From Aquimonas sp. (GTDB lineage Bacteria; Pseudomonadota; Gammaproteobacteria; Xanthomonadales; Xanthomonadaceae): a DNA stretch of 64,000 nucleotides. The DNA is taken from positions 1,796-65,795 of the forward strand of contig DAORND010000008.1 of the NCBI GenBank assembly GCA_035440755.1, given 5' to 3'. The stretch's first letter is position 1, and every line of letters begins with the position of its first letter. Shown here piece by piece: positions 9,375 through 20,985 of the stretch. The notes below the pieces were generated by a model, which made no database searches, was not told where the DNA came from, and saw only the letters and a program-made list of their open reading frames with translations. The position numbers and the translations under genes are program-made.

Positions 9375-9477
9375 AAGGCTTTCCGTTGTCTGCGTCCACG
9401 CTGGTACGATTGTGCCTTGTGGCGATCTGTAGCGCTGGCTTGCTGAGCTGAAATGAACACCCGAGGCGACATCAATC

Positions 9478-9885
9478 ATGCAGAACTTTGAACAAATCCG
9501 TGCCCATGTCGACAGTCGATATGAGGTTGTACGTAGCGAGCCTTACCTCATCGGTTTGGAGCTCACCCTGAATCAGGGCGCGCGCCACCAAGGCCTGTTT
9601 CTGACCGAGTTGGAGGACGAAGACGGTCGAAAGTTTCTGCGTGTCAGTACGGCACTCGCCCCGACGACGGGCATTGATCTGGCCCGTGCCCTCAAGTTCA
9701 ACTGGGAGCAGCGGGTGGGCTATCTGGCGATTTCCGAACTGGATGGGCTGACCTATCTGCAGCTTTGCGAGAACCGTCCTTATGAAGGCCTGACGGGGGC
9801 GGAAATTGATCGGCTGGTGCTGGAGATCGGTGGTTTGGGAGACCGGATTGAGCGCGCATTTTCTGCCGGTGGAGATCTCTTCTGA
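9478..9885 (+). CDS. Conserved hypothetical protein, YbjN/type-III-chaperone-like fold
   Basis: 135 aa, acidic, alpha-beta(n)-alpha pattern with C-terminal amphipathic helix; clean terminator downstream. Confidence 0.6.
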   Translation: MQNFEQIRAHVDSRYEVVRSEPYLIGLELTLNQGARHQGLFLTELEDEDGRKFLRVSTALAPTTGIDLARALKFNWEQRVGYLAISELDGLTYLQLCENRPYEGLTGAEIDRLVLEIGGLGDRIERAFSAGGDLF

Positions 9886-9907
9886 CGGCTTTGCACGGCT
9901 GCATTGA

Positions 9908-9954
9908 AGAAACACAAAGGGCGCACCCGACTGGCGTGCGCCCTTTGTGTTTCT
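9908..9954. terminator. Bidirectional rho-independent terminator
   Basis: Perfect 19-bp inverted repeat AGAAACACAAAGGGCGCAC / GTGCGCCCTTTGTGTTTCT between convergent genes. Confidence 0.9.
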
Positions 9955-9968
9955 GGTGATTCGTGGAA

Positions 9969-10346
9969 TCAGCCCGGTCTTGTCGGCAAGCCTTCGTTGC
10001 ACCAGGCGATCATGCCTCCATCAAGGTTGATCAACGTTGCGTCACTACGTTCGCTTCGCAGCCTGGCGATGGCGCGTTGCGAACGCATGCCGCTTCGACA
10101 AACCACCAACAGCTCTCTGGTATCGGCGGGAATTCCCGCGCTTTTCAGTGCGTTCCAGCCATAGGCGTCAACGTCACCGAGCGGCACGTGCTTGGCCTGC
10201 GCAATCATGCCGCCGGCGACTTCGTTGGCTTCACGAACATCGATGGCGGCGACACCGCGCGCGATCAGCTGTTCGGCCTCGCGTGGCCCCACGCCGCCCG
10301 CCTGACCGGAAAACACCTGCTTCAACCAGTCCATCGGATTGGTCAT
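9969..10346 (-). CDS. Single-domain rhodanese (sulfurtransferase)
   Basis: IDVRE..E, active-site loop VCRSGMRS, NLDGGMIAW; ATG at 10346 overlaps the upstream stop. Confidence 0.92.
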   Translation of the reverse strand: MTNPMDWLKQVFSGQAGGVGPREAEQLIARGVAAIDVREANEVAGGMIAQAKHVPLGDVDAYGWNALKSAGIPADTRELLVVCRSGMRSQRAIARLRSERSDATLINLDGGMIAWCNEGLPTRPG

Positions 10347-10693
10347 GTCTTGCTTCCTCCCCCACAGTAGATGCGATGCAGTACGGCAATGATGTCGTGG
10401 ACCGGACCATCGGCCAGCGAATAGAAAATGGTCTGCGCGCTGCGTCGGGTTCTCACCAGTCCCTCTTCGCGCAACACGGCCAGGTGCTGCGAGAGGGCCG
10501 ATTGCGACAGATCCATGCCCGCGTTGATGTCGCCCACCGCTTGCTCGCCATCCGCCAGCATGCAAAGGATCATCAGGCGACGGTCGTTGGCAATGGCCTT
10601 CAGCAGACGCGAAGCGTCGCTGGCGTGGCCGCGCATTTCTGCTGCTTCGGAGGCTACCAGCGCGCGCGAGCGCTCAATCGATTCGACAGTCAT
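10343..10693 (-). CDS. ArsR/SmtB family persulfide-sensing repressor (BigR/SqrR/HlyU type)
   Basis: LLKAIANDRRLMILCML (Cys in helix 2), SQSALSQHLAVLREEGLV, C-terminal LHRIYC (second Cys): the two-Cys pattern of BigR/SqrR. Confidence 0.9.
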   Translation of the reverse strand: MTVESIERSRALVASEAAEMRGHASDASRLLKAIANDRRLMILCMLADGEQAVGDINAGMDLSQSALSQHLAVLREEGLVRTRRSAQTIFYSLADGPVHDIIAVLHRIYCGGGSKT

Positions 10694-10700
10694 GGCGGAC

Positions 10701-11090
10701 TCAGCGCGTAGTAACCGGATGACCGCGTTCGGTCCACGCGGTGATGCCACCGGCCATTGAGCGCACCTTGCTGAAACCCATCTGTTGCAGCGCATCTGCA
10801 GCCAGCGCAGAGCGGCCACCGGTACGGCAATAGAGCGTGATCGCACGGTCTCGCAGTGCCAAGGCGGGATCGACGGCGCAGGCCATAGCGGGATGGGCCT
10901 CAACCTGAAACTCCAGCACGCCACGCGGAATATTGATCGCACCCGCGAGGTGTCCCATCTCGAACTCGGCCGGTTCGCGAACGTCAATCAGCACATCTTC
11001 GCGATGTTCCTCCGCCGCAAGGGCGTCGACACTTACTTCAGAGATTCGGGTCTTGGCGGCAGCGACTAGATCGCTTGCGGAAAGGGACAT
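10701..11090 (-). CDS. Single-domain rhodanese (sulfurtransferase)
   Basis: LIDVREPAEF..GHLAGAINIPRG, LYCRTGGRSALAA, SMAGGITAW; GAAGGAG RBS. Confidence 0.93.
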   Translation of the reverse strand: MSLSASDLVAAAKTRISEVSVDALAAEEHREDVLIDVREPAEFEMGHLAGAINIPRGVLEFQVEAHPAMACAVDPALALRDRAITLYCRTGGRSALAADALQQMGFSKVRSMAGGITAWTERGHPVTTR

Positions 11091-11106
11091 CGGAAGCTCT
11101 CCTTCA

Positions 11107-11143
11107 AATATGAGTTGACACTAATATAAGTGCAAACTAAATT
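11107..11143. promoter_or_regulatory. Overlapping divergent sigma70 promoters with shared palindromic operator
   Basis: + strand TTGACA(11115-20)-N17-TAAATT(11138-43); - strand TTGCAC(11135-30)-N17-CATATT(11112-07); 12/14 palindrome CACTAATATAAGTG at 11119-11132. Confidence 0.72.
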
Positions 11144-11323
11144 AGCGTGCATCAAGCATACTGCGTTCCAGCCGATTACTCTACGGCCCAAGCGGGATAT
11201 GGCTGCGCGGCACAGGTCGAGGTGCCCAGCCGGTCTGGTGAAATCGGCGTATATACAGCAGTGCTCGCCCCACCGGCAGGGGCGTGACACCTCATTTCGG
11301 CCGGGGAGAGGGAGATTTGTCAC

Positions 11324-12592
11324 ATGGCTAAGATCGTTGTACTGGGTGGCGGCATCGGCGGTACCAGCATGGCTTATGAGCTGCGCGCGGCGCTCGGCAA
11401 GGAACACAGCATTTCCGTCGTGGGTGATACCCCGCTGTTTTCGTTCACGCCGTCCAATCCCTGGGTGGCAGTCGGCTGGCGTAAGCCCAGCGACATTCAG
11501 GTCAATATCGGCCAATACCTGGCCAAGAAGGGCATTGCCTTCAATCCGGTCGGTGCGCAGGAACTGAAGCCTGCTGAGAACGCCATCATCCTGCGCGATG
11601 GGCACCGCATGGAGTATGACTACCTCGTCATCACGACCGGCCCACGCCTGGCGTTTGACGAAATTCCCGGCTTGGGCCCGGATGGCCATACGCACTCGGT
11701 ATGCACGACGCCGCACGCGTTGGAAGGCTGGATGGCCTACCAGGAGTTCGTGAAGAACCCCGGACCCATCGTCGTTGGTGCTGCACAGGGCGCAAGCTGC
11801 TTTGGTCCCGCCTACGAGTTCATCATGATCCTTGATGCGGATCTGCGTAAGCGCAAGATTCGCGACAAGGTGCCGATGACCTATGTCAGCAGTGAGCCCT
11901 ATGTCGGGCACATGGGTCTGGGCGGCGTCGGTGATTCCAAAGGCTTGCTCGAGGGAGAGTTCCGACAGCGCCATATCAAGTGGATCGTCAACTCGAAGAT
12001 CACCGAAGTGCGCGATGGCGAGATGGCCGTGCAGGAAATGGATGCCGACGGCAAGCCGTTGCGCGAGCACACCGTGCCGTTCAAATATTCGATGATTCTT
12101 CCCGCATTTACTGGCGTGGATGCCGTGCGCACGGCACCAGAGATGTGCAATCCGCGTGGTTTTGTCTTGATCGACAAGCACCAGCGCAATCCGAAGTATC
12201 CCAATGTCTACTCGGCCGGCGTGTGCGTCGCCATTCCTCCTGTGGAGCCGACACCTGTGCCGACGGGCGCGCCGAAGACGGGTTTCATGATCGAGTCGAT
12301 GGTGACTGCCATCGTTGACAACATCAAAGCGGAGTTGACTGGCAAGCCCGTCGAGGCGGTCGCCACTTGGAATGCCATCTGCTTGGCCGACATGGGCGAC
12401 ACCGGTGCTGCGTTCGTCGCGCTTCCGCAGATTCCGCCGCGCAACGTGACCTGGGCCAAGGTCGGCAAGTGGGTGCATCTGGCCAAGATCGCGTTCGAGA
12501 AATATTTCCTTTTCAAAGTGAAGTCCGGCAACAACGAGCCTGTGTACGAAAAATACGTGCTCAAGGCGCTGGGCATCATGCGTTTGAAGTGA
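11324..12592 (+). CDS. sqr: Sulfide:quinone oxidoreductase, type I (SqrA-like)
   Basis: GGGIGG FAD motif, FTPSNPW, SVCT, GASCFGPAYE, GVCVAIPP..PTPVPTGAPKTGFMIESM, CLADMGD; all three conserved cysteines present. Confidence 0.95.
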   Translation: MAKIVVLGGGIGGTSMAYELRAALGKEHSISVVGDTPLFSFTPSNPWVAVGWRKPSDIQVNIGQYLAKKGIAFNPVGAQELKPAENAIILRDGHRMEYDYLVITTGPRLAFDEIPGLGPDGHTHSVCTTPHALEGWMAYQEFVKNPGPIVVGAAQGASCFGPAYEFIMILDADLRKRKIRDKVPMTYVSSEPYVGHMGLGGVGDSKGLLEGEFRQRHIKWIVNSKITEVRDGEMAVQEMDADGKPLREHTVPFKYSMILPAFTGVDAVRTAPEMCNPRGFVLIDKHQRNPKYPNVYSAGVCVAIPPVEPTPVPTGAPKTGFMIESMVTAIVDNIKAELTGKPVEAVATWNAICLADMGDTGAAFVALPQIPPRNVTWAKVGKWVHLAKIAFEKYFLFKVKSGNNEPVYEKYVLKALGIMRLK

Positions 12593-12617
12593 TCCGTTCC
12601 TTTTCTGGAGACAATCG

Positions 12618-12821
12618 ATGAATCTTGATCGAGCCATTTTTGCCTTCGCTGGCGTGATGATCTTGGTGAGCCTGGCGCTGGGGCATTTCGTGTCGCCGTA
12701 CTGGCTACTGTTGACGGCCTTTGTGGGCTTGAACCTGCTGCAGTCGGCGTTCACCGGTTTTTGCCCGGCGGCCATGATTCTCGGCAAGTTCGGCGTCAAA
12801 GCCGGTTGCGCATTCAAGTAA
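12618..12821 (+). CDS. DUF2892 (YgaP-like) small inner-membrane protein
   Basis: MNLDRAIFAFAG..., two TM helices, conserved FTGFCP. Confidence 0.88.
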   Translation: MNLDRAIFAFAGVMILVSLALGHFVSPYWLLLTAFVGLNLLQSAFTGFCPAAMILGKFGVKAGCAFK

Positions 12822-12831
12822 GGACGACCTC

Positions 12832-13917
12832 ATGCAGATGCGAACCGAACTGGGTGTGCTGGCATTGGTCAGCGCACTGACTCTTGGCCTGACGGGTTGC
12901 GGTGGAGAATCCACGCCGACCGAAATCGTGGCGAGCGGCGAACTGCCGTTCTCCACCTTGACGGTTTCTCCGGTTTCCGCCCAACGCGAACGCATCTGGG
13001 ATGGCGTGATCGAAGCGGTGAACCAGGCCACCTTGTCTGCGCAGACAGGTGGCCGGGTCCGCGAGGTTCTAGTCGACGTCAACGATTATGTGAAGGCAGG
13101 AGATGTCATCCTGCGTTTTACCGACGTCGAGCAACAGTCTGCAATTCGTCAGGCGCAAGCCGCGTTGGCCGCGGCAAAAGCGGCGTTGGACGAGGCGGAA
13201 TCCGATTTCAAGCGGATCAGCGAGATCTTTGGACGGCAGTTGGTTTCGAAAGCGCAGTTGGATCAGGCGACGGCGCGCCGTGACGCCGCCAAGGCGCAGC
13301 ATGAGTCCGCGCAAGCCGCCGTGCGCGCTGCCAACGAGCAGGTTGACTACACCGTCGTCCGCGCGCCGTATTCTGGCATCGTCACCCAGCGCCACGTTGA
13401 AGTAGGCGAGGCAGTGAATCCGGGTCAGCCGTTGATCTCGGGTTTGTCGCTGGACAAGCTCCGCGTCAACGTGCAAATACCGCAGAGCGACATGGCGTCC
13501 ATACGCGAGCACGCCAAAGCCTCCCTGCTACTGGCAGATGGCAAGCGCATCGACGCAGAACAGGTGATCGTGTTTCCGTATGCAGACCCAACGACGCATA
13601 CCTTCAGCGTGCGCTTGGAGCTGCCGCAGGCGGAAACCGGTCTGCAACCGGGGATGACTGCCAAGGCGGCATTTGTAATCGGTGCCTCCGAGCGACTCTT
13701 GGTGCCTGAATCCGCATTGGTTCGACGCAGTGAGGTCACTGCCGTTTACGTGGTCAGCGAGGGCAAAGTCAGTTTGCGTCAGATTCGTCTGGGGCACCGT
13801 TTTGGCAATGAAATCGAGGTGTTGGCAGGTCTTTCTGCGGGCGACGCGGTCGCCACCGATCCGGTAGCCGCGGGTGTCTACCTCTCCCGCATGCACGCCC
13901 GGGAGTTGGCGCAATGA
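12832..13917 (+). CDS. RND efflux periplasmic adaptor (MFP), lipoprotein
   Basis: Lipobox LTGC, lipoyl halves (SAQTGGRV..V.V...DYVKAG; VRAPYSGIV), alpha-helical hairpin, GLQPGM. Confidence 0.95.
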   Translation: MQMRTELGVLALVSALTLGLTGCGGESTPTEIVASGELPFSTLTVSPVSAQRERIWDGVIEAVNQATLSAQTGGRVREVLVDVNDYVKAGDVILRFTDVEQQSAIRQAQAALAAAKAALDEAESDFKRISEIFGRQLVSKAQLDQATARRDAAKAQHESAQAAVRAANEQVDYTVVRAPYSGIVTQRHVEVGEAVNPGQPLISGLSLDKLRVNVQIPQSDMASIREHAKASLLLADGKRIDAEQVIVFPYADPTTHTFSVRLELPQAETGLQPGMTAKAAFVIGASERLLVPESALVRRSEVTAVYVVSEGKVSLRQIRLGHRFGNEIEVLAGLSAGDAVATDPVAAGVYLSRMHARELAQ

Positions 13918-16900
13918 GCGAGCGCGACGGCGCGCCTGCGATGGGCATTTCCGGCCGTCTTGCGGCGGCATTTCAGGCCAATCCGCTGACGCCCATCCTG
14001 GCGATTGCGGGTCTCCTTCTCGGTATGGTTGCGGTGATGATCACGCCGCGCGAGGAAGAGCCGCAGATCGATGTGACCATGGCCAACGTCACCGTGCCGT
14101 TTCCGGGAGCGCCGGTTGATGATGTTGAGAACCTGATCAGTGTCCCACTGGAACAGGTGCTTTCGGAGATTGATGGCGTAAAACACGTCTACTCGGTATC
14201 GCGCCCTGGTGTGTCGATGACCACGGTCGAGTTTGATGTGGGCGTGCCACGCGCAGATGCATTGGTGCGGCTGTACAACCAGATCTATTCGAATCTGGAC
14301 TGGTCGCCGCAGGGACTGGGCGTTGGTCAGCCCCTGGTGCGCCCGATGGGTATTGATGACGTGCCGGTCATGGGTCTGACCTTGTGGACCGACGATCCAG
14401 CACGCGGTGCAACGGACGTGGCGGAAGTTGCGCACACTCTTGAGGCCGAATTGAAACGCATCCCAGGAACGCGCGATGTGTATACGATCGGCGCACCCGA
14501 CCGTGCCGTGATTGTTGAGCTGGACGCCACCAAACTGGCCTCCTACGGTATGGACGTTGCCGACCTCTCCAACGCCTTGCTGGCCAGCAATGTGGTCTCT
14601 CAGGCAGGCGACCGGATCGGCCCAGAAGGACAAGTTCCGGTGACTGGGGGGACCTATCTCGCGGATGCGCGTCAGGTTGCCGAGCTGGTCATCGGCTTGC
14701 GGGATGGCAAACCCCTGTTTCTGTCGGATGTGGCGACCGTGCGGCGCGGCGCGGACATGCCAACGCAATATGTGTGGCATGGCGTACCCGCGGGTCAGCA
14801 TGGGCCTCAACAGGGCATCGCGCCGGCGGTGACCATTGCTGTCGCCAAGAAGCCGGGTGCCAATGCAGCCGACATCACCAAGGCCATCGAACACCGTATC
14901 GAGATCTTGCGTGGGAGTGTCATTCCAGAGGGCGTGGAAGTTACCGTCACGCGGGACTACGGCAAGACCGCGAACGACAAGGCGATCAAGCTGATCCAGA
15001 AATTGGTGTTCGCGACGATGGCGGTGGTCTTGTTGGTGCTGTTTGCGCTGGGCTGGCGCGAAGCCATCGTGGTGGGTGCGGCGGTCATCATCACCCTAGC
15101 GCTGACCTTGTTCGCCAGTTGGGCGATGGGCTTCACGATCAATCGCGTATCACTTTTTGCTCTGATCTTCTCCATCGGTATCTTGGTTGACGATGCCATT
15201 GTGGTGGTGGAGAACATCCATCGGCATATGGCAAAAGGCGGTCGAACCTTGTTCGAGGCTATCCCTCCGGCGGTCGATGAGGTCGGCAGTCCGACCATCC
15301 TGGCGACGTTCACCGTGATCGCTGCCCTGTTGCCAATGGCTTTCGTCACCGGATTGATGGGGCCCTATATGCGGCCGATCCCGATCAATGCCTCGGTGGG
15401 CATGCTGCTATCGCTGGCGGTGGCATTGATCGTGACGCCCTGGCTGTCCTTGAAGCTGCTGTCGCGCCACCTTGGCGAGCATGCACAGGGCACATCCGAT
15501 GGTCATGGTGCGGGCATCGCGGCGCGACTGCATGGCGTTTTTGATCGCATCATGCGGCCCTTCCTCGACCGCCAACGTGGTGGCCGACGTCGAAACTGGT
15601 TGTGGGCGGGTATCGGTGTGGCACTGGTGCTTTCTGCCGGGATGGCAGTGGTGCAGTGGGTCGTGCTGAAAATGCTGCCCTTCGACAACAAGTCGGAATT
15701 CCAGGTCGTGGTCGACATGCCCGAAGGCAGCACGCTGGAGCGCACGAATGCGTTGCTTCAGGAACTGGCCGGAGTGGTCGCCGAACTGCCAGAAGTGAGT
15801 GATTATCAGGGCTACGCGGGAACCTCCGGACCGGTCAATTTCAATGGCCTCGTTCGCCAGTACTACCTGCGTCAGGGTCCCATCGTCGCCGACCTGCAAG
15901 TCAATCTGGTCGACAAGCATGATCGTGATCGCAAGAGTCACGAGATCGCCCGCGCGGTGCGTCCACAGCTCGCTGCAATCGGCAAGCAGTACGGCGCATC
16001 CGTCAAAGTCGTCGAGGTTCCGCCCGGACCGCCAGTTCTGTCTCCGCTGGTCGCGGAAATCTATGGGTCGGATCAGGCCACGGCACGCGCCATGGCGCGT
16101 GAGCTGGTCGGCAAGTTCGAGGCGACCGAGGGCTTGGTGGACATCGATACCACGGTCGAGTCGGAATCAGCGCGCGATCTGGTGCTGGTGGACCGTGCGC
16201 GTGCAGCCCAGATGGGCGTCAGTCAGGCGGCCATTGCGCAGGCCTTGCGGACCGGCTTGTCCGGCAATGACGCGACCTACCTGCGAGACGGCGCTTCGAA
16301 GTATCCCGTGCCGGTGCGCTTGCGCTTGCCTGCCGGTGATCAAGCCAGCATGGATCAATTGCTGGCGCTTCGAGTTCGCACTCAGGACGGGCGACTGATC
16401 CCGCTGTCCGAAGTCGTTACGGTGCAGCGCGTCACCTGGGAGAATGCGATCTATCACAAGGACCTGCTGCCGGTCGTATACGTCATGGCAGACGAGGCGG
16501 GTGCGTTGGATAGCCCTCTCTATGGCATGTTTGACGTGGTCGGTCAGTTGGGTGACGAGATGCTCGCTGGCTACGGCATCAAGCAGTACTTCATTGCTCA
16601 GCCGGAGTCCACGGCGGAGTTCGGCATCAAATGGGACGGCGAGTGGCAGATCACCTATGAAACGTTCCGCGACATGGGAATCGCCTATGGCGTGGGCATG
16701 GTGCTGATCTATCTGCTGGTGGTGGCGCAGTTCCGCAGCTATGTCGTTCCACTGATCATCATGGCGCCGATTCCGCTCACCGTGATTGGCGTGATGCCCG
16801 GCCACGCCTTGCTCGGTGCGCAATTCACCGCGACCAGCATGATCGGCATGATCGCGTTGGCGGGAATCATCGTGCGCAACTCGATATTGCTGGTGGACTT

Positions 16901-17162
16901 CATCAACAGCGAGCTGGCGGCGGGTCGTCGCCTTGACGACGCAGTGATCGACGCCTGTGCCGTCCGCGCGCAGCCGATTGCTCTAACGGCGCTGGCGGCG
17001 ATGCTCGGTGCGTTGTTCATCCTTGATGACCCCATTTTCAATGGCCTCGCCATTGCGCTGATCTTCGGCATCCTGGTGAGCACGGTTCTGACCCTGGTCG
17101 TGATCCCCTTGCTCTACTACGTGTTTCTCAATCGTCGCCAGCCCGGCGAGGCGCAGCCATGA
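13914..17162 (+). CDS. RND efflux permease (AcrB/AcrD/AcrF superfamily)
   Basis: 1082 aa; TM4 GILVDDAIVVVENI, TM10 GIIVRNSILLVDF, TM11 RAQPIALTA proton-relay residues; ATGA overlap with the MFP. Confidence 0.97.
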   Translation: MSERDGAPAMGISGRLAAAFQANPLTPILAIAGLLLGMVAVMITPREEEPQIDVTMANVTVPFPGAPVDDVENLISVPLEQVLSEIDGVKHVYSVSRPGVSMTTVEFDVGVPRADALVRLYNQIYSNLDWSPQGLGVGQPLVRPMGIDDVPVMGLTLWTDDPARGATDVAEVAHTLEAELKRIPGTRDVYTIGAPDRAVIVELDATKLASYGMDVADLSNALLASNVVSQAGDRIGPEGQVPVTGGTYLADARQVAELVIGLRDGKPLFLSDVATVRRGADMPTQYVWHGVPAGQHGPQQGIAPAVTIAVAKKPGANAADITKAIEHRIEILRGSVIPEGVEVTVTRDYGKTANDKAIKLIQKLVFATMAVVLLVLFALGWREAIVVGAAVIITLALTLFASWAMGFTINRVSLFALIFSIGILVDDAIVVVENIHRHMAKGGRTLFEAIPPAVDEVGSPTILATFTVIAALLPMAFVTGLMGPYMRPIPINASVGMLLSLAVALIVTPWLSLKLLSRHLGEHAQGTSDGHGAGIAARLHGVFDRIMRPFLDRQRGGRRRNWLWAGIGVALVLSAGMAVVQWVVLKMLPFDNKSEFQVVVDMPEGSTLERTNALLQELAGVVAELPEVSDYQGYAGTSGPVNFNGLVRQYYLRQGPIVADLQVNLVDKHDRDRKSHEIARAVRPQLAAIGKQYGASVKVVEVPPGPPVLSPLVAEIYGSDQATARAMARELVGKFEATEGLVDIDTTVESESARDLVLVDRARAAQMGVSQAAIAQALRTGLSGNDATYLRDGASKYPVPVRLRLPAGDQASMDQLLALRVRTQDGRLIPLSEVVTVQRVTWENAIYHKDLLPVVYVMADEAGALDSPLYGMFDVVGQLGDEMLAGYGIKQYFIAQPESTAEFGIKWDGEWQITYETFRDMGIAYGVGMVLIYLLVVAQFRSYVVPLIIMAPIPLTVIGVMPGHALLGAQFTATSMIGMIALAGIIVRNSILLVDFINSELAAGRRLDDAVIDACAVRAQPIALTALAAMLGALFILDDPIFNGLAIALIFGILVSTVLTLVVIPLLYYVFLNRRQPGEAQP

Positions 17163-17620
17163 CTGATACCGACTCACTGATCATTGCCTGTCCGCATTGT
17201 CACGGACTCAACCGTTTGCCGCAGGCACGCCTGAAGGATGCGCCACACTGCGGCAAGTGCGGCGCGACGATTTTCTCGGGCAAACCGTTCGAGCTCGACG
17301 CCAGCAATTTCGAAGTTCATGTGGCACGTTCGCAGTTGCCCATCTTGGTCGACTTCTGGGCGCCGTGGTGTGGTCCCTGTCGATTGATGGCGCCTGCCTT
17401 CGCGCAAGCTGCCTCGCAGTTGGAACCCCAGTTCCATCTGGCCAAGGTGGATACCGAAGCGCAGCCGATGCTGGGGCAGCGCTTTGGCATTCGCAGCATT
17501 CCCACCTTGGCACTGTTTCACAACGGAACCGAGATCGGACGTCAGTCTGGTGCCTTGCCGCTAGGTGAAATCGTGCGCTTCGCGCGCACCCAGTTCATGA
17601 ACTACGTGGCGGGTCTGTAG
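17159..17620 (+). CDS. trxC: Thioredoxin 2 (zinc-finger thioredoxin)
   Basis: CPHC...CGKC zinc site and WAPWCGPC active site, IRSIPTL. Confidence 0.93.
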   Translation: MTDTDSLIIACPHCHGLNRLPQARLKDAPHCGKCGATIFSGKPFELDASNFEVHVARSQLPILVDFWAPWCGPCRLMAPAFAQAASQLEPQFHLAKVDTEAQPMLGQRFGIRSIPTLALFHNGTEIGRQSGALPLGEIVRFARTQFMNYVAGL

Positions 17621-17622
17621 CC

Positions 17623-18078
17623 ATGTCGGACGCCCGCTTTTCATTGACCGTCGAGCAGGAATCGGACTACGTCTTTCGAGTCCGTTTTGATGACACAGAC
17701 ATCCCCGATCTGCTGACCGACGAACCAGAGCCGCTCGGTGGTGGCAGTGGCCCCAATCCCTCGCGCATGCTGGTTGCGGCGGTCGCCAATTGCATGAGCG
17801 CGAGCCTGCTGTTCTCGCTGCGCAAGTTCAAGAATACGCCGGGCACCCTGGTCACCAAGGCGACCGCACATCTGGGCCGCAGTCCCGAAGGACGCCTGCG
17901 CGTCGAGCGAATCGACGCCGAAATCGCGTTGCCCGAAATGGCGGGCAGCTACGCACAACTCGAACGCATTCTTGGACAGTTCGAACAGTTTTGCGTCGTG
18001 ACAGAAAGCGTGCGCAATGGCGTGGCCGTGAACGTCCGCGTCGTCGATCCAACCGGTGTCGTCCTGCATGGCGAGTGA
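17623..18078 (+). CDS. OsmC/Ohr family protein
   Basis: DEPEPLGGGSGPNP..LVAAVANC...FCVVTESV, two-Cys OsmC pattern. Confidence 0.9.
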   Translation: MSDARFSLTVEQESDYVFRVRFDDTDIPDLLTDEPEPLGGGSGPNPSRMLVAAVANCMSASLLFSLRKFKNTPGTLVTKATAHLGRSPEGRLRVERIDAEIALPEMAGSYAQLERILGQFEQFCVVTESVRNGVAVNVRVVDPTGVVLHGE

Positions 18079-18113
18079 GTTCGCCACCGAGTTTTTCTGA
18101 TGGAGCTACACCA

Positions 18114-19097
18114 ATGAAATCTCTTGTCATTGCCTTGAGTCTGCTGATGGCAGGCTCCGACGCCCACGCCCAAGAGGCGGCAAACCCGGATGCCGCCAGT
18201 GCCGCAAAAGCGCAAGCGGCGATCAAGGACCTGGGCCAATCCCTGCGCGGTGCGTTGGTCGCCAAGATGCAGTCGGAAGGCCCGGTGGCGGCGGTCAATT
18301 TCTGCCACGACGAAGCCCCGCTCATCGCCTCCCAGGTCGCCGAGCGTCATCAGGTGCAGATTGGACGCACGGCGGTGCGCCATCGCAGCCCGAGCAATGC
18401 CCCCAGCGAATGGCAACAAGCGGCGCTGGCGGAATTTGCCGCCAAGGTGGCAGAGGGCGCTCCGGCGGCTGGAATGACCTCGTCAAGTACGGTTGATGTC
18501 AACGGTGAAAGTCGTTTCCGCTTTGTGCAGAGCATCCCGACCGAGGCACCCTGCCTGGCCTGCCACGGTGACACTGTCGCGCCACCGATCAAGGCCGAAA
18601 TCGACAAGCATTACCCGCAAGACACGGCGACGGGCTTCAAGGAAGGTGACCTGCGTGGCATGTTCTGGGTGGAGTTCCCGATGACTCCCGCCGCCACGCC
18701 CGTGTCACAGAACCCGCCGGATCAACGCGCCCCTATCGTAATGAGCGAAGCGCAACGTGTGTCCCTGCGACTGGAAATGCGCGGACGCATGGAAACGCTG
18801 CAAGGCGTCATGGCCGCGCTGGCCTCGGGCGATTGGTCTGAAGTCGCCAAGCGCTCGGAAGAGGGCACACGTGGGCAGCATCGCGGTGTCGACTTCCGCT
18901 CGGCATTGCCTCAGGAATGGTTTGGCATGGCGCGCCCCATGCACGGCGAGTTCGCGGCCATCCAGCACGAGGCCGAGGGTCAGAAGCGCGTCGACGTCGC
19001 CCTGCAACATCTGGCCAAGGCAGGTCAGTACTGCACGTCCTGTCATGCGACTTTCCGCCCCGTGACGCCTAGCGAGAGCGCTGTCGCGCAGCAATGA
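18114..19097 (+). CDS. Secreted diheme c-type cytochrome: DUF3365/Tll0287-like domain fused to a cytochrome c'-like helical domain
   Basis: Signal peptide MKSLVIALSLL; AVNFCHDEAP, RTAVRHRSPSNAP, CLACHG, YPQDTATGFKEGDLRG (DUF3365 pattern); Pro-rich linker; second domain ends CTSCHATFR. Confidence 0.8.
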   Translation: MKSLVIALSLLMAGSDAHAQEAANPDAASAAKAQAAIKDLGQSLRGALVAKMQSEGPVAAVNFCHDEAPLIASQVAERHQVQIGRTAVRHRSPSNAPSEWQQAALAEFAAKVAEGAPAAGMTSSSTVDVNGESRFRFVQSIPTEAPCLACHGDTVAPPIKAEIDKHYPQDTATGFKEGDLRGMFWVEFPMTPAATPVSQNPPDQRAPIVMSEAQRVSLRLEMRGRMETLQGVMAALASGDWSEVAKRSEEGTRGQHRGVDFRSALPQEWFGMARPMHGEFAAIQHEAEGQKRVDVALQHLAKAGQYCTSCHATFRPVTPSESAVAQQ

Positions 19098-19732
19098 CGC
19101 TGAACCACGCGAACCCGCGTGAGTTCTGGGACTCGCGCTTTGCGGAAATCGACTTTCTCTACGGTCAGCTGCCCAACGCGTGGCTGTACGAATGTGCCAT
19201 CAGCCTGCCACCACACGGCGGGCGCGTGCTGTGTGCCGCCGAGGGCCAAGGTCGCAATGCCCTGTGGTTGGCGAAGCAGGGATGCGAAGTCCACGTGGTG
19301 GATATTTCTGCCGTGGCCTTGGAGCACCTTGAGCGGCGCGCACGACAACTCGGACTGCCGATCACCTGCGAACAGGCCGATCTGGCCAATTGGATCGCCG
19401 AGCCCGAGAGTTACGACGCGGCCTTGCTGATCTTCGCCCACTTCCCGCCAGCGGTACGGAAGCATGTGCACACGCAAGTCCAACGCGCCCTCAAACCGAG
19501 AGGTTGGCTGGTGTTGGAAGCGTTTTCCCCAGAGCAACTCGGATTGACTTCCGGCGGACCGCGAAATCCTGCCTGGCTCTACAGCGCTGAGATGATCGCC
19601 GGGGATTTCGCAGGGATGCAGATCGCTTCGCTGAGCCAGATCCGGATCCGCCTGGATGAAGGCCCCGGACATCAGGGCGAAGCCGCCGTGGTCCGCTTGC
19701 TTGCAAGACGAATCGAAGAGCGCGCGGAGTAA
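19094..19732 (+). CDS. Class I SAM-dependent methyltransferase (TehB-like)
   Basis: FWDSRF...YGQLPNAWL, RVLCAAEGQGRNALWLA, VDIS; ATGA overlap with the cytochrome gene. Confidence 0.9.
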   Translation: MTLNHANPREFWDSRFAEIDFLYGQLPNAWLYECAISLPPHGGRVLCAAEGQGRNALWLAKQGCEVHVVDISAVALEHLERRARQLGLPITCEQADLANWIAEPESYDAALLIFAHFPPAVRKHVHTQVQRALKPRGWLVLEAFSPEQLGLTSGGPRNPAWLYSAEMIAGDFAGMQIASLSQIRIRLDEGPGHQGEAAVVRLLARRIEERAE

Positions 19733-19881
19733 CAGCGCTCCTTCTGCGGCAAGGATCACCTGCGCGCGGCGCGGACGGGGCGACCTGACGCTTGTCGGCT
19801 CCACTCTACCGACCATCTGGCTGGACTGGAGTCGCTGACGGCGCGGGCATACAGTGGGATGGTCAAAAAAGGGGGAAGTGC

Positions 19882-20445
19882 ATGCGCAACTTGTGCCACC
19901 AGTCAAGATTCAGCGGTCTTCCTGCATTTAGTTCGGTTTGGCAGCGCGGCGTCACCCTGTTGGAGTTGATGGTCGCTGTTGCTATTGTGGGCATTACCCT
20001 GTCCCTTGCGTTACCAAGTTTCAATGACTCGATCGAACGGAATCGCGTCGTATCGACCGTCAACGAAATGGTGGGTGCCATGAATCTTGCCCGTTCGGAA
20101 GCAATCCGCACGAACCGGACTGCCACCTTTTGTGCCAGCCTTGATCAAGCGACCTGCGGTGGGACATGGAGTGATGGCTGGATCGCTATCGCTGATCTCG
20201 ATGGGGATGCGGTCATGGATGTCTTGCGCACTGGCACTGTCAGTGACAAGGACGAAGTTACGGCTGCTGCGACTCAGATCGACTTTAATCAGCGCGGTCT
20301 GAAGACAGTCCCGGTGGGTGCGGCCACTATCGCTGTTCAGCCAGCAGGTTGTGCGGTTGGAAAGCCGCATCGTCGCGTCGTTTCCGTGACTGCTACCGGC
20401 GGTGCATTTGTCGCCAATCATGGCACTGACGCCAATTGTATTTGA
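19882..20445 (+). CDS. fimT: Type IV minor pilin FimT/FimU (GspH-like)
   Basis: Prepilin cleavage QRG|VTLLELMVAV; LNLARSEA-like MNLARSEAIR. Confidence 0.85.
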   Translation: MRNLCHQSRFSGLPAFSSVWQRGVTLLELMVAVAIVGITLSLALPSFNDSIERNRVVSTVNEMVGAMNLARSEAIRTNRTATFCASLDQATCGGTWSDGWIAIADLDGDAVMDVLRTGTVSDKDEVTAAATQIDFNQRGLKTVPVGAATIAVQPAGCAVGKPHRRVVSVTATGGAFVANHGTDANCI

Positions 20446-20457
20446 TGGGTTCTTTAT

Positions 20458-20985
20458 ATGACTACGAAATGGCAAGCTGATACTGAACGTGGTGTATCGC
20501 TCATCGAGGTAATGGTGGCAGTGTTGGTGCTTTCAATTGGACTGCTGGGAATGGCTTCGCTTATGGGGGTCTCGTTGCGCAATACCCAGAGTGCCAACTA
20601 CCGGACTCAGGCGGCTAATCTTGCATACGAGTACATTGACACGGCGCGAGCCTATATCGCCATTGGCGGTGGAGACAAGCTTGGATACATCCTGCAGCCA
20701 GCGTGGTCGGCCGCCAATTGCGATATTGCGACCGCGCCTCTCTACAATTGCGGTGGTGGCTTGGACTCCTTGAATTGCGACATCCGACGATTAGGGGACC
20801 ATGTGTGCCGGGTGTTGCCCGGAGGGCGTCTGCGGGCCACTGCTGTGCCGCTTGGTGGAAATCCGGATCGCCTGCAGTTGACGGTCGACATCTGCTGGAC
20901 AGATGACCGATCAGGCGCGGGAGCAGTGACTGAGGCCTGCAACAGCGATTCGGAAACCTTGTTCACGTTGGTGACCGAGCTATGA
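20458..20985 (+). CDS. pilV: Type IV minor pilin PilV
   Basis: ERG|VSLIEVMVAVLVLSIGLLGMA, SANYRTQA, terminal ICWTDDR. Confidence 0.92.
   Translation: MTTKWQADTERGVSLIEVMVAVLVLSIGLLGMASLMGVSLRNTQSANYRTQAANLAYEYIDTARAYIAIGGGDKLGYILQPAWSAANCDIATAPLYNCGGGLDSLNCDIRRLGDHVCRVLPGGRLRATAVPLGGNPDRLQLTVDICWTDDRSGAGAVTEACNSDSETLFTLVTEL

Follow-up and report, generated by a model that had tools for sequence, protein, structure and literature searches.

Introduction

The operon Dsui_3440-3443 of Azospira suillum PS, reported by Mehta-Kolte et al. 2017 (PMC5358917) to encode a protein of "unknown function", an efflux pump, a sulfide:quinone oxidoreductase (SQR), and a membrane fusion protein (MFP), is a published counterpart of the locus analyzed here, a predicted operon of Aquimonas sp. 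in which sqr is followed by genes for a DUF2892 protein, an MFP, and a permease of the resistance-nodulation-cell division (RND) family. The Aquimonas locus lies in a stretch of 64,000 nucleotides, hereafter called the window (assembly GCA_035440755.1, contig DAORND010000008.1, positions 1,796 to 65,795 of the forward strand), and coordinates given without a contig are positions in it. In the Azospira report, the four genes are prominent in Bar-seq results and strongly expressed with H2S, the expression of each going from low to high in Table S4, and the authors suggest that RND pumps export metal sulfides, interpreting the pump as a metal-sulfide or general stress response. The two operons share the same four gene families, with RND permeases that fall in the same family tree, and the Azospira operon is strongly H2S-induced; its authors did not recognize Dsui_3440 as a DUF2892 protein.

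A second precedent comes from Li et al. 2025 (PMC12423496), where a range of SqrR/BigR/sHdrR-type regulators are marked "next to RND transporters" (Supplementary Figure 2 and Table S1), examples being R. capsulatus SqrR and regulators of Halorhodospira halophila, Rhodopseudomonas palustris, and Rhodomicrobium, and where RND pumps are classed among probable sulfur-compound transporters. Such loci resemble the Aquimonas locus in having the gene for an ArsR-type, two-cysteine sulfane sulfur sensor directly beside MFP and RND genes, but what is reported is vicinity only, with no pump characterized and no mention of DUF2892.

Two better-known systems share other parts of the module. The E. coli YgaV-YgaP system pairs an ArsR-type, BigR-like regulator with a PF11127 membrane hairpin that carries a conserved Cys at the end of its second helix, and includes a rhodanese; in YgaP, however, the rhodanese is fused to the hairpin, whereas in the window the hairpin stands alone and two rhodaneses are encoded by separate genes, and the YgaVP system has neither SQR nor pump. 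Operons of the cst/FisR type, with SQR, persulfide dioxygenase (PDO), and TauE, are likewise sulfide-induced and persulfide-sensed and pair SQR with a membrane exporter. There, PDO oxidizes sulfane sulfur to sulfite or thiosulfate and TauE exports the anion across one membrane, while the Aquimonas operon encodes no PDO or TauE and its exporter is a pump of the tripartite type.

For the pump alone, the comparison is with the HAE-1 pumps MexJK, TriABC, and MdtABC of P. aeruginosa and E. coli, whose permeases are homologous over their full length, have the Asp-Asp pair of transmembrane helix 4 (TM4) and the Arg/Thr relay of TM11, and, in MexK, also the TM10 Arg. These pumps need an outer-membrane factor (OMF), often supplied in trans. 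The window's pump differs from them in its sulfide-response gene context, which the drug pumps do not have, and in 88 family-specific residue positions. Papers on A. vinosum pyrite and on A. caldus SscR were also considered as precedents and were set aside, the pumps there being unrelated ones of Czc/Cus type.

Results

The Aquimonas operon and its published relatives

Open reading frames (ORFs) and domain calls delineate a single operon of eight close-packed or overlapping genes on the plus strand, 11324-19732, in the order sqr, DUF2892, MFP, RND, trxC, and genes for an OsmC-like protein, a Tll0287-like protein, and a methyltransferase (Table 1). Gaps from sqr through the OsmC-like gene are 25 nt (sqr/DUF2892), 10 nt (DUF2892/MFP), -4 nt (MFP/RND), -4 nt (RND/trxC), and 2 nt, the negative values being 4-nt overlaps. 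A sequence-only reading of this DNA, made before the analysis reported here, had described tight sqr-DUF2892-MFP-RND order; all four genes are indeed on the plus strand at the coordinates it gave, with sqr just 5' of the 12618 at which its stretch began. The opposite arm, on the minus strand and divergent from the sqr operon, encodes a rhodanese, a BigR/SqrR-like repressor, and a second rhodanese. The SQR aligns over its full length to the type I enzyme of A. ferrooxidans, 3SZ0, with 64% identity (E = 5.6e-152), and its three catalytic Cys motifs (SVCT, GASCFGP, and AICLADMGD) all match up with those of the solved structure, which identifies it as a type I SQR.

Two of the published deletion primers have exact matches in one Rhodocyclaceae genome, and these located the Azospira operon. 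The 6.7 kb that they bracket encode an MFP, an SQR (63% identity to that of the window), an RND permease (59-61%), and a DUF2892 protein (54%), in the order MFP-SQR-RND-DUF2892 for Dsui_3443 to Dsui_3440, as against sqr-DUF2892-MFP-RND in the window; the permease is placed in the betaproteobacterial clade of the tree described below. No BigR-like gene was found within about 5 kb of the Azospira operon, nor were TrxC, OsmC, Tll0287, or methyltransferase genes found in the 14 kb around it. The arrangement had been treated as new in the sequence-only reading, but with the Azospira operon and the RND genes beside SqrR-type regulators it is already in print. The module is a recurrent and already reported kind, an SQR module under control of a probable persulfide sensor that includes a specific RND pump.

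Linkage of the RND family to sulfide genes

Relatives of the RND permease were collected as 80 loci found by RND similarity plus 92 drawn from 400 genomes sampled evenly within the same class. ORFs were chosen by selection weighted on third-position GC content, neighbors were labeled by tblastn and blastp, and a tree was built for 169 orthologs. Numbers in brackets that begin with L identify individual loci. The neighbor counts are minimum values, many contigs being truncated; "any sulfur gene" means any of bigR, DUF2892, sqr, rhodanese, or trxC.

The clade that holds the window's permease, of Lysobacterales type, has any sulfur gene at 19 of its 20 loci (DUF2892 at 17, bigR at 15, sqr at 9), and the betaproteobacterial clade has one at 25 of 31 (DUF2892 21, bigR 14, sqr 7), for 44 of 51 when the two are pooled. 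In a control group of gammaproteobacterial paralogs, with 43-45% identity, 0 of 20 loci have these neighbors. The order found in the window recurs in Lysobacterales (L010, L011, L013, L018, L019, L022) and at L042, and is therefore no chance adjacency. Elsewhere sqr moves about: it occupies at least seven positions relative to the pump genes, namely before DUF2892-MFP-RND, after RND, between MFP and RND, after the OMF gene, after trxC, directly before MFP, and, on a Steroidobacteraceae contig, at the operon end.

A sister RND clade, joined with support 0.99 and with 42-44% identity, is found on two alphaproteobacterial contigs. In both, the pump is divergent from an SQR-(TrxC)-DUF2892-(OMF) arm with a BigR-like gene alongside, the arm reading SQR-TrxC-DUF2892-OMF in Ponticaulis profundi (L213, 1-8484) and SQR-DUF2892 in a metagenome-assembled genome (MAG; L217, 1077-7210). 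The DUF2892 proteins of these two loci are 76-80% identical to that of the window, and the adaptors only about 25%.

Across the 400 genomes, 96 of which encode a type I SQR, sqr is found in 57 of the 97 genomes with a pump ortholog and in 39 of the 303 without, an odds ratio of 9.6 that is overstated, since shared ancestry is uncorrected. That one gene set has persisted while its order was repeatedly rearranged is good evidence that the pump and sulfide oxidation are functionally linked. Judged by gene neighborhoods, this RND family is one that has repeatedly been built into sulfide loci in three proteobacterial classes. The sequence-only reading had tied the pump to sulfide oxidation and had looked to a comparison of RND phylogeny with sqr or sqrR neighbors as a check on it. 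That comparison separates two sulfur-linked RND clades from the paralog group, and the tie is borne out by linkage that is shuffled yet present in Gamma-, Beta-, and Alphaproteobacteria and absent from the paralogs, and by co-induction of the Azospira operon by H2S.

The same data bear on whether the pump might be a conventional multidrug or solvent exporter like MexK, TriC, and MdtB, co-regulated with sulfide genes or hitch-hiking beside them, with no sulfur substrate. Its nearest solved relatives are indeed MexK, MdtB, and TriC (E = 1e-70 to 1e-77), and a large gammaproteobacterial clade, weighed in the Discussion, mostly has no sulfur gene nearby. Sulfane sulfur, as a signal, also derepresses other efflux pumps, for example via MexR. 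A hitch-hiking pump fits poorly with an sqr that has entered the pump operon repeatedly and independently, in differing orders, in three classes and two sister RND clades, with the empty paralog control, and with the genome-wide co-occurrence of pump and type I sqr. We consider an ordinary drug pump quite unlikely.

The RND permease and its adaptor

The permease matches PF00873 from position 12 to position 1020 of 1021 and so has the full-length ACR_tran architecture. It falls below the cut-offs of all curated NCBIfam models, the best being RND_permease_2 (457.7 against 1250), with MdtB at 268.8 against 1584. By sequence, it is an HAE-1-like permease of a family distinct from the curated equivalogs. 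At least 90% of about 170 orthologs keep the proton-relay residues: D426 and D427 in LVDDAIV, R988 in IIVRNS, and R1018 and T1025 in VRAQPIALT. The lipoprotein adaptor and the permease, with its intact relay, make up a complete inner-membrane half of a tripartite pump of HAE-1 type. All the relay motifs quoted in the sequence-only reading are thus present and conserved, but its emphasis on Arg in place of Lys in TM10 is misplaced: the same Arg occurs in MexK and in two paralogs from the same genome, so it is no mark of this pump and says nothing about substrate.

What does mark the family is a set of 88 invariant positions not found in seven paralogs from the same genome. Among the invariant features is a Met/Pro-rich stretch at residues 461-497 (15294-15404), covering TM5, a loop, and TM6, with M475, M482, P484, M486, P490, and M497; none of the genome's seven other RND permeases has it. 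The stretch loosely recalls the soft-metal relays of CusA, and its four Met residues favor a rival account of the pump, in which it belongs to the sulfide response but exports thiophilic metals, metal-sulfide complexes, or toxic organic compounds that rise under sulfide stress. The MFP, moreover, scores 162 bits on a CzcB/NccB model. For Azospira, Mehta-Kolte et al. put the induction of RND genes by H2S down to the toxicity of metal sulfides, and several further RND pumps as well as genes for iron uptake were co-induced there (PMC5358917).

Against a metal substrate stand several features of the locus. Identity as a heavy-metal (HME) pump of the CusA/CzcA family was rejected, the permease scoring 241.8 on TIGR00914 against a cut-off of 701.45 and having the HAE-1-type Asp-Asp pair in TM4, and the CzcB score of the MFP compares with a cut-off of 319. 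The best solved relatives of the permease are drug pumps, the adjacent regulator shows a two-cysteine pattern of persulfide type and no metal site, and the module encodes no metal chaperone or P-type ATPase. Export of metals or stress-related organics, the chief alternative to sulfane sulfur export, is, on balance, somewhat unlikely.

The outer-membrane factor

No OMF gene occurs on the window's contig, as the sequence-only reading had said of the locus; four are found elsewhere in the genome, which has about nine RND permeases, and one of the four, on contig C1, has no RND neighbor. It is reasonable to suppose that the OMF is supplied in trans. An OMF gene adjoins the pump at orthologous loci L061, L063, L069, L180, and L213, and in Ponticaulis its start overlaps the stop of the DUF2892 gene. 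Since some orthologous loci have their own OMF, the family probably works as a tripartite pump.

The DUF2892 protein

The product of the second gene scores well above the PF11127 gathering cut-off and has two transmembrane helices followed by a Cys. In an AlphaFold2 model made from 32 sequences (pLDDT 88.8), helices span residues 3-24, 29-46, and 50-57, and Cys49 lies at the end of helix 2. The membrane-proximal Cys of the GFCP motif, pointed out in the sequence-only reading, is this Cys49, invariant in all 53 pump-linked DUF2892 proteins, though the motif is WCL or WCM in some; in many of these proteins the basic tail bears another Cys, Cys64 in the window's copy. A Foldseek search of the model against the PDB returned nothing below E = 7, as a helical hairpin is too generic.

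That reading went on to suggest that the DUF2892 protein is an accessory subunit that hands sulfur from SQR to the pump, and several observations favor a dedicated subunit, comparable to AcrZ or MmpS, that binds the transmembrane domain of the permease and passes on SQR-derived sulfur. DUF2892 is the commonest neighbor in the two sulfur-linked clades, occurring at 38 of 51 loci where sqr occurs at 16; its gene adjoins MFP or RND directly, with short gaps, also at loci without sqr; and in Ponticaulis its stop overlaps the start of the OMF gene.

The wider distribution of the protein weakens that suggestion. Among the 93 closest DUF2892 homologs in the 400-genome sample, with 47-71% identity, five are encoded next to a pump ortholog, four next to sqr, and 84 next to neither, and for 52 of the 84 the genome also holds a pump ortholog. 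The neighbors of 20 standalone copies are miscellaneous, including citrate synthase and carB-greA, with bigR and Tll0287 beside one copy and a rhodanese beside another. With 5 of 93 adjacent to the pump, the consistent co-occurrence expected of an accessory protein like AcrZ, YajC, or MmpS is not seen, and DUF2892 as an obligate pump partner was rejected on these two results. At least ten bigR-linked pump loci have no DUF2892 gene. The DUF2892 gene follows sqr rather than the pump genes in the alphaproteobacterial MAG (L217), and in the Ponticaulis sqr operon (L213) it lies between trxC and the OMF gene. As to binding of the transmembrane domain of the permease, no natural fusion was seen. Azospira also has an unlinked DUF2892 gene, Dsui_0042, whose transcript is one of those most strongly induced by H2S (PMC5358917).

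Topology raises a further difficulty. In E. coli YgaP, a cytosolic rhodanese precedes the same hairpin, and Cys159, at the C-terminal end of the second transmembrane helix, lies where SCN- binding alters packing; a conserved Cys on the cytoplasmic side, next to the rhodanese, is the precedent. Homology to YgaP and the basic C-terminal tail, through the positive-inside rule, place Cys49 of the window's protein probably at the cytoplasmic face. RND pumps of HAE-1 type are understood to draw their substrates from the periplasmic side or the outer leaflet. The type I SQR of R. capsulatus has been reported as periplasmic, and yet also makes intracellular persulfides. If Cys49 is cytoplasmic and SQR faces the periplasm, as substrate intake by the pump is understood to do, direct hand-off, whether from the DUF2892 protein to the pump or from SQR to the DUF2892 protein, is hard to picture.

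A dedicated subunit relaying sulfur to the pump is therefore, in our estimation, improbable. The DUF2892 protein looks instead like a small membrane protein of general use in the persulfide response, one that these operons often take in without its being a fixed pump subunit. We read it as working with a rhodanese or thioredoxin at the inner face; conduction of a small sulfur anion, a role proposed for YgaP, may be a further function.

The Aquimonas genome has a second DUF2892 gene (C2:104027-104215; L097, 1501-1692), which scores 82 bits, is more canonical, and has the motif NFCPLY...STC. It stands alone, between a GNAT-domain gene and a gene for an ATPase of Mrp/ApbC type.

The repressor and the divergent promoter

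The repressor is the sole BigR/SqrR-like gene product of the genome. It is an ArsR winged-helix protein (HTH_5) with two Cys residues 66 positions apart, Cys45 and Cys111 in ORF numbering, and thus has the two-cysteine pattern of BigR and SqrR; the spacing equals that of C42/C108 in BigR and C41/C107 in SqrR. Among 42 pump-linked homologs of the repressor, Cys111 is kept in all and Cys45 in 34. The NCBIfam equivalog model for BigR gives it 90.4 bits, under the cut-off of 155. Between the two divergent arms lies the sole strong sigma70-like site in 9400-20600, TTGACA-17-TAAATT at 11115-11143, and the palindrome CTAAATTAG at 11136-11146 overlaps the -10 hexamer of this sqr promoter. Related boxes (GCTAATTTAGC, ACTAAATTAGC, and CTAATRTWA) occur in the same place in Lysobacterales loci L010, L013, L016-L019, L022, L024, and L034. 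The palindrome CTAAATTAG is likely the operator of the BigR-like repressor and is put forward as a candidate.

Other genes of the locus

Past the OsmC-like gene the operon may be less uniform. A weak terminator-like hairpin followed by a T-run occurs at 18069-18086, directly 3' of the OsmC-like stop, so that the Tll0287-like and methyltransferase genes may have lower or partly separate expression. The Tll0287-like gene is found directly 3' of RND on a Steroidobacteraceae contig (L215, 11518-12162) and after bigR-DUF2892 in another gammaproteobacterium (L222).

Table 1. Genes and promoter elements of the Aquimonas locus, by position in the window
Feature	Position	Strand	Evidence and remarks
Rhodanese, single domain, no signal peptide	9969..10340	-	PF00581, E = 9.3e-10; last gene of divergent regulator operon
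BigR/SqrR-like ArsR-family repressor	10343..10696	-	HTH_5, E = 9.7e-16
Rhodanese, first gene of divergent operon	10701..11090	-	ORF; as "rhd1" adjoins bigR in L010, L016, L022
Sigma70-like promoter with palindrome CTAAATTAG, candidate operator	11115..11147	+	Scan for promoter-like sites
Type I sulfide:quinone oxidoreductase (sqr), 422 aa	11324..12592	+	64% identity to A. ferrooxidans SQR 3SZ0
DUF2892/YgaP-like two-helix membrane protein, 67 aa	12618..12821	+	PF11127, 48.8 bits (cut-off 25.3)
MFP, periplasmic adaptor lipoprotein with long alpha-hairpin, 361 aa	12832..13917	+	TIGR01730, 234.5 bits; HlyD_D23; lipobox LTGC
RND permease, HAE-1-like, 1082 aa	13914..17162	+	PF00873, 515 bits
Thioredoxin 2 (TrxC) with N-terminal Zn ribbon	17159..17620	+	NF008229, 139.9 bits (above cut-off 125)
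OsmC-like protein	17623..18078	+	PF02566, E = 2.1e-10; 3' of pump also in L015, L016, L018, L019, L215
Secreted Tll0287-like heme protein, two CxxCH motifs	18114..19097	+	PF11845, E = 1.8e-22; also in L215, L222
Class I S-adenosylmethionine methyltransferase, TehB/TPMT-like; start overlaps upstream stop	19094..19732	+	Methyltransf_25, E = 3.6e-16; weak TPMT match

Discussion

The reading we prefer, to which we assign a probability of roughly 0.4, is that the locus is a sulfide-stress module under a persulfide sensor and that the pump's most likely role is to expel SQR-derived sulfane sulfur species from the cell envelope. When sulfide appears, persulfide or polysulfide would form and bridge the two Cys residues of the repressor, which would then be released from the CTAAATTAG box. 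SQR would oxidize sulfide at the membrane to polysulfide or to sulfane sulfur of S8 type. The pump would dock to an OMF encoded elsewhere, for which the genome offers its four candidates. Its cargo would be the SQR product, which dissolves poorly and tends to enter membranes, or else an organic polysulfane made from that product, taken up in the periplasm or outer leaflet and released outside the cell. The rhodaneses, TrxC, and the OsmC-like protein would clear sulfane sulfur that reaches the cytoplasm. Export of sulfane sulfur by the pump is a plausible proposal. In its favor, the SQR of R. capsulatus makes polysulfide in vitro, and how extracellular sulfur forms there is stated to be unknown.

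A number of observations weigh against this reading. In Azospira, deletion of the whole operon left the rate of perchlorate-dependent sulfide oxidation unchanged (PMC5358917); the lack of a phenotype in the assay used is also a point for an ordinary drug pump. Within the RND family, the large gammaproteobacterial clade has any sulfur gene at just 10 of 102 loci (DUF2892 3, bigR 6, sqr 2), and mostly shows another synteny, MFP-RND-lysR-small ORF-perM-(bcp), as at many of L099-L186 and, for example, at L115 and L026. Genomes with a pump ortholog but no type I sqr number 40 of 97. The permease has no Cys conserved across the approximately 170 orthologs, the single Cys of the window's copy being a non-conserved one, and shows no other evident trait of a sulfur-handling protein. 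The sidedness of type I SQR is itself debated. Lastly, the genome encodes SoxB (contig C20:1757-3433), at 863 bits against a cut-off of 550, and a 292-residue protein that matches the solved type II persulfide dioxygenase 4YSK with 332 bits, the dioxygenase-like gene being given at C3:29158-29610. With SoxB and a persulfide dioxygenase-like gene present, sulfane sulfur is not necessarily a dead end here, and the genome can probably, from these matches, oxidize it further outside the module.

As to the makeup of the large gammaproteobacterial clade, it includes Thiothrix, Thiohalophilus, Thiohalocapsa, Halochromatium, Tenderia, and Parabeggiatoa, and its named members are mostly sulfur oxidizers.

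A broader proposal would make this RND family and its alphaproteobacterial sister clade the missing outer-membrane route for SQR-derived polysulfide or elemental sulfur in Gram-negative sulfide oxidizers with extracellular sulfur deposits, with the DUF2892 hairpin as the inner-membrane conduit or thiol relay that feeds in cytoplasmic sulfane sulfur. We regard this fuller scheme as unlikely.

How elemental sulfur or polysulfide made by SQR exits the Gram-negative cell is an unresolved question, stated explicitly for R. capsulatus. That question could become testable with a defined pump family, one that is sulfide-induced in one organism and that recurs within sqr operons governed by persulfide sensors. 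The survey narrows the candidates: it singles out a specific RND clade and not DUF2892 in the role of a pump subunit, and it brings together, as one module, published observations that were scattered, namely the Azospira operon and the RND genes adjoining regulators of SqrR type. Should the pump prove to export metals or drugs instead, the module would be another case of sulfide-triggered efflux, with a bearing on sulfide-dependent tolerance phenotypes.

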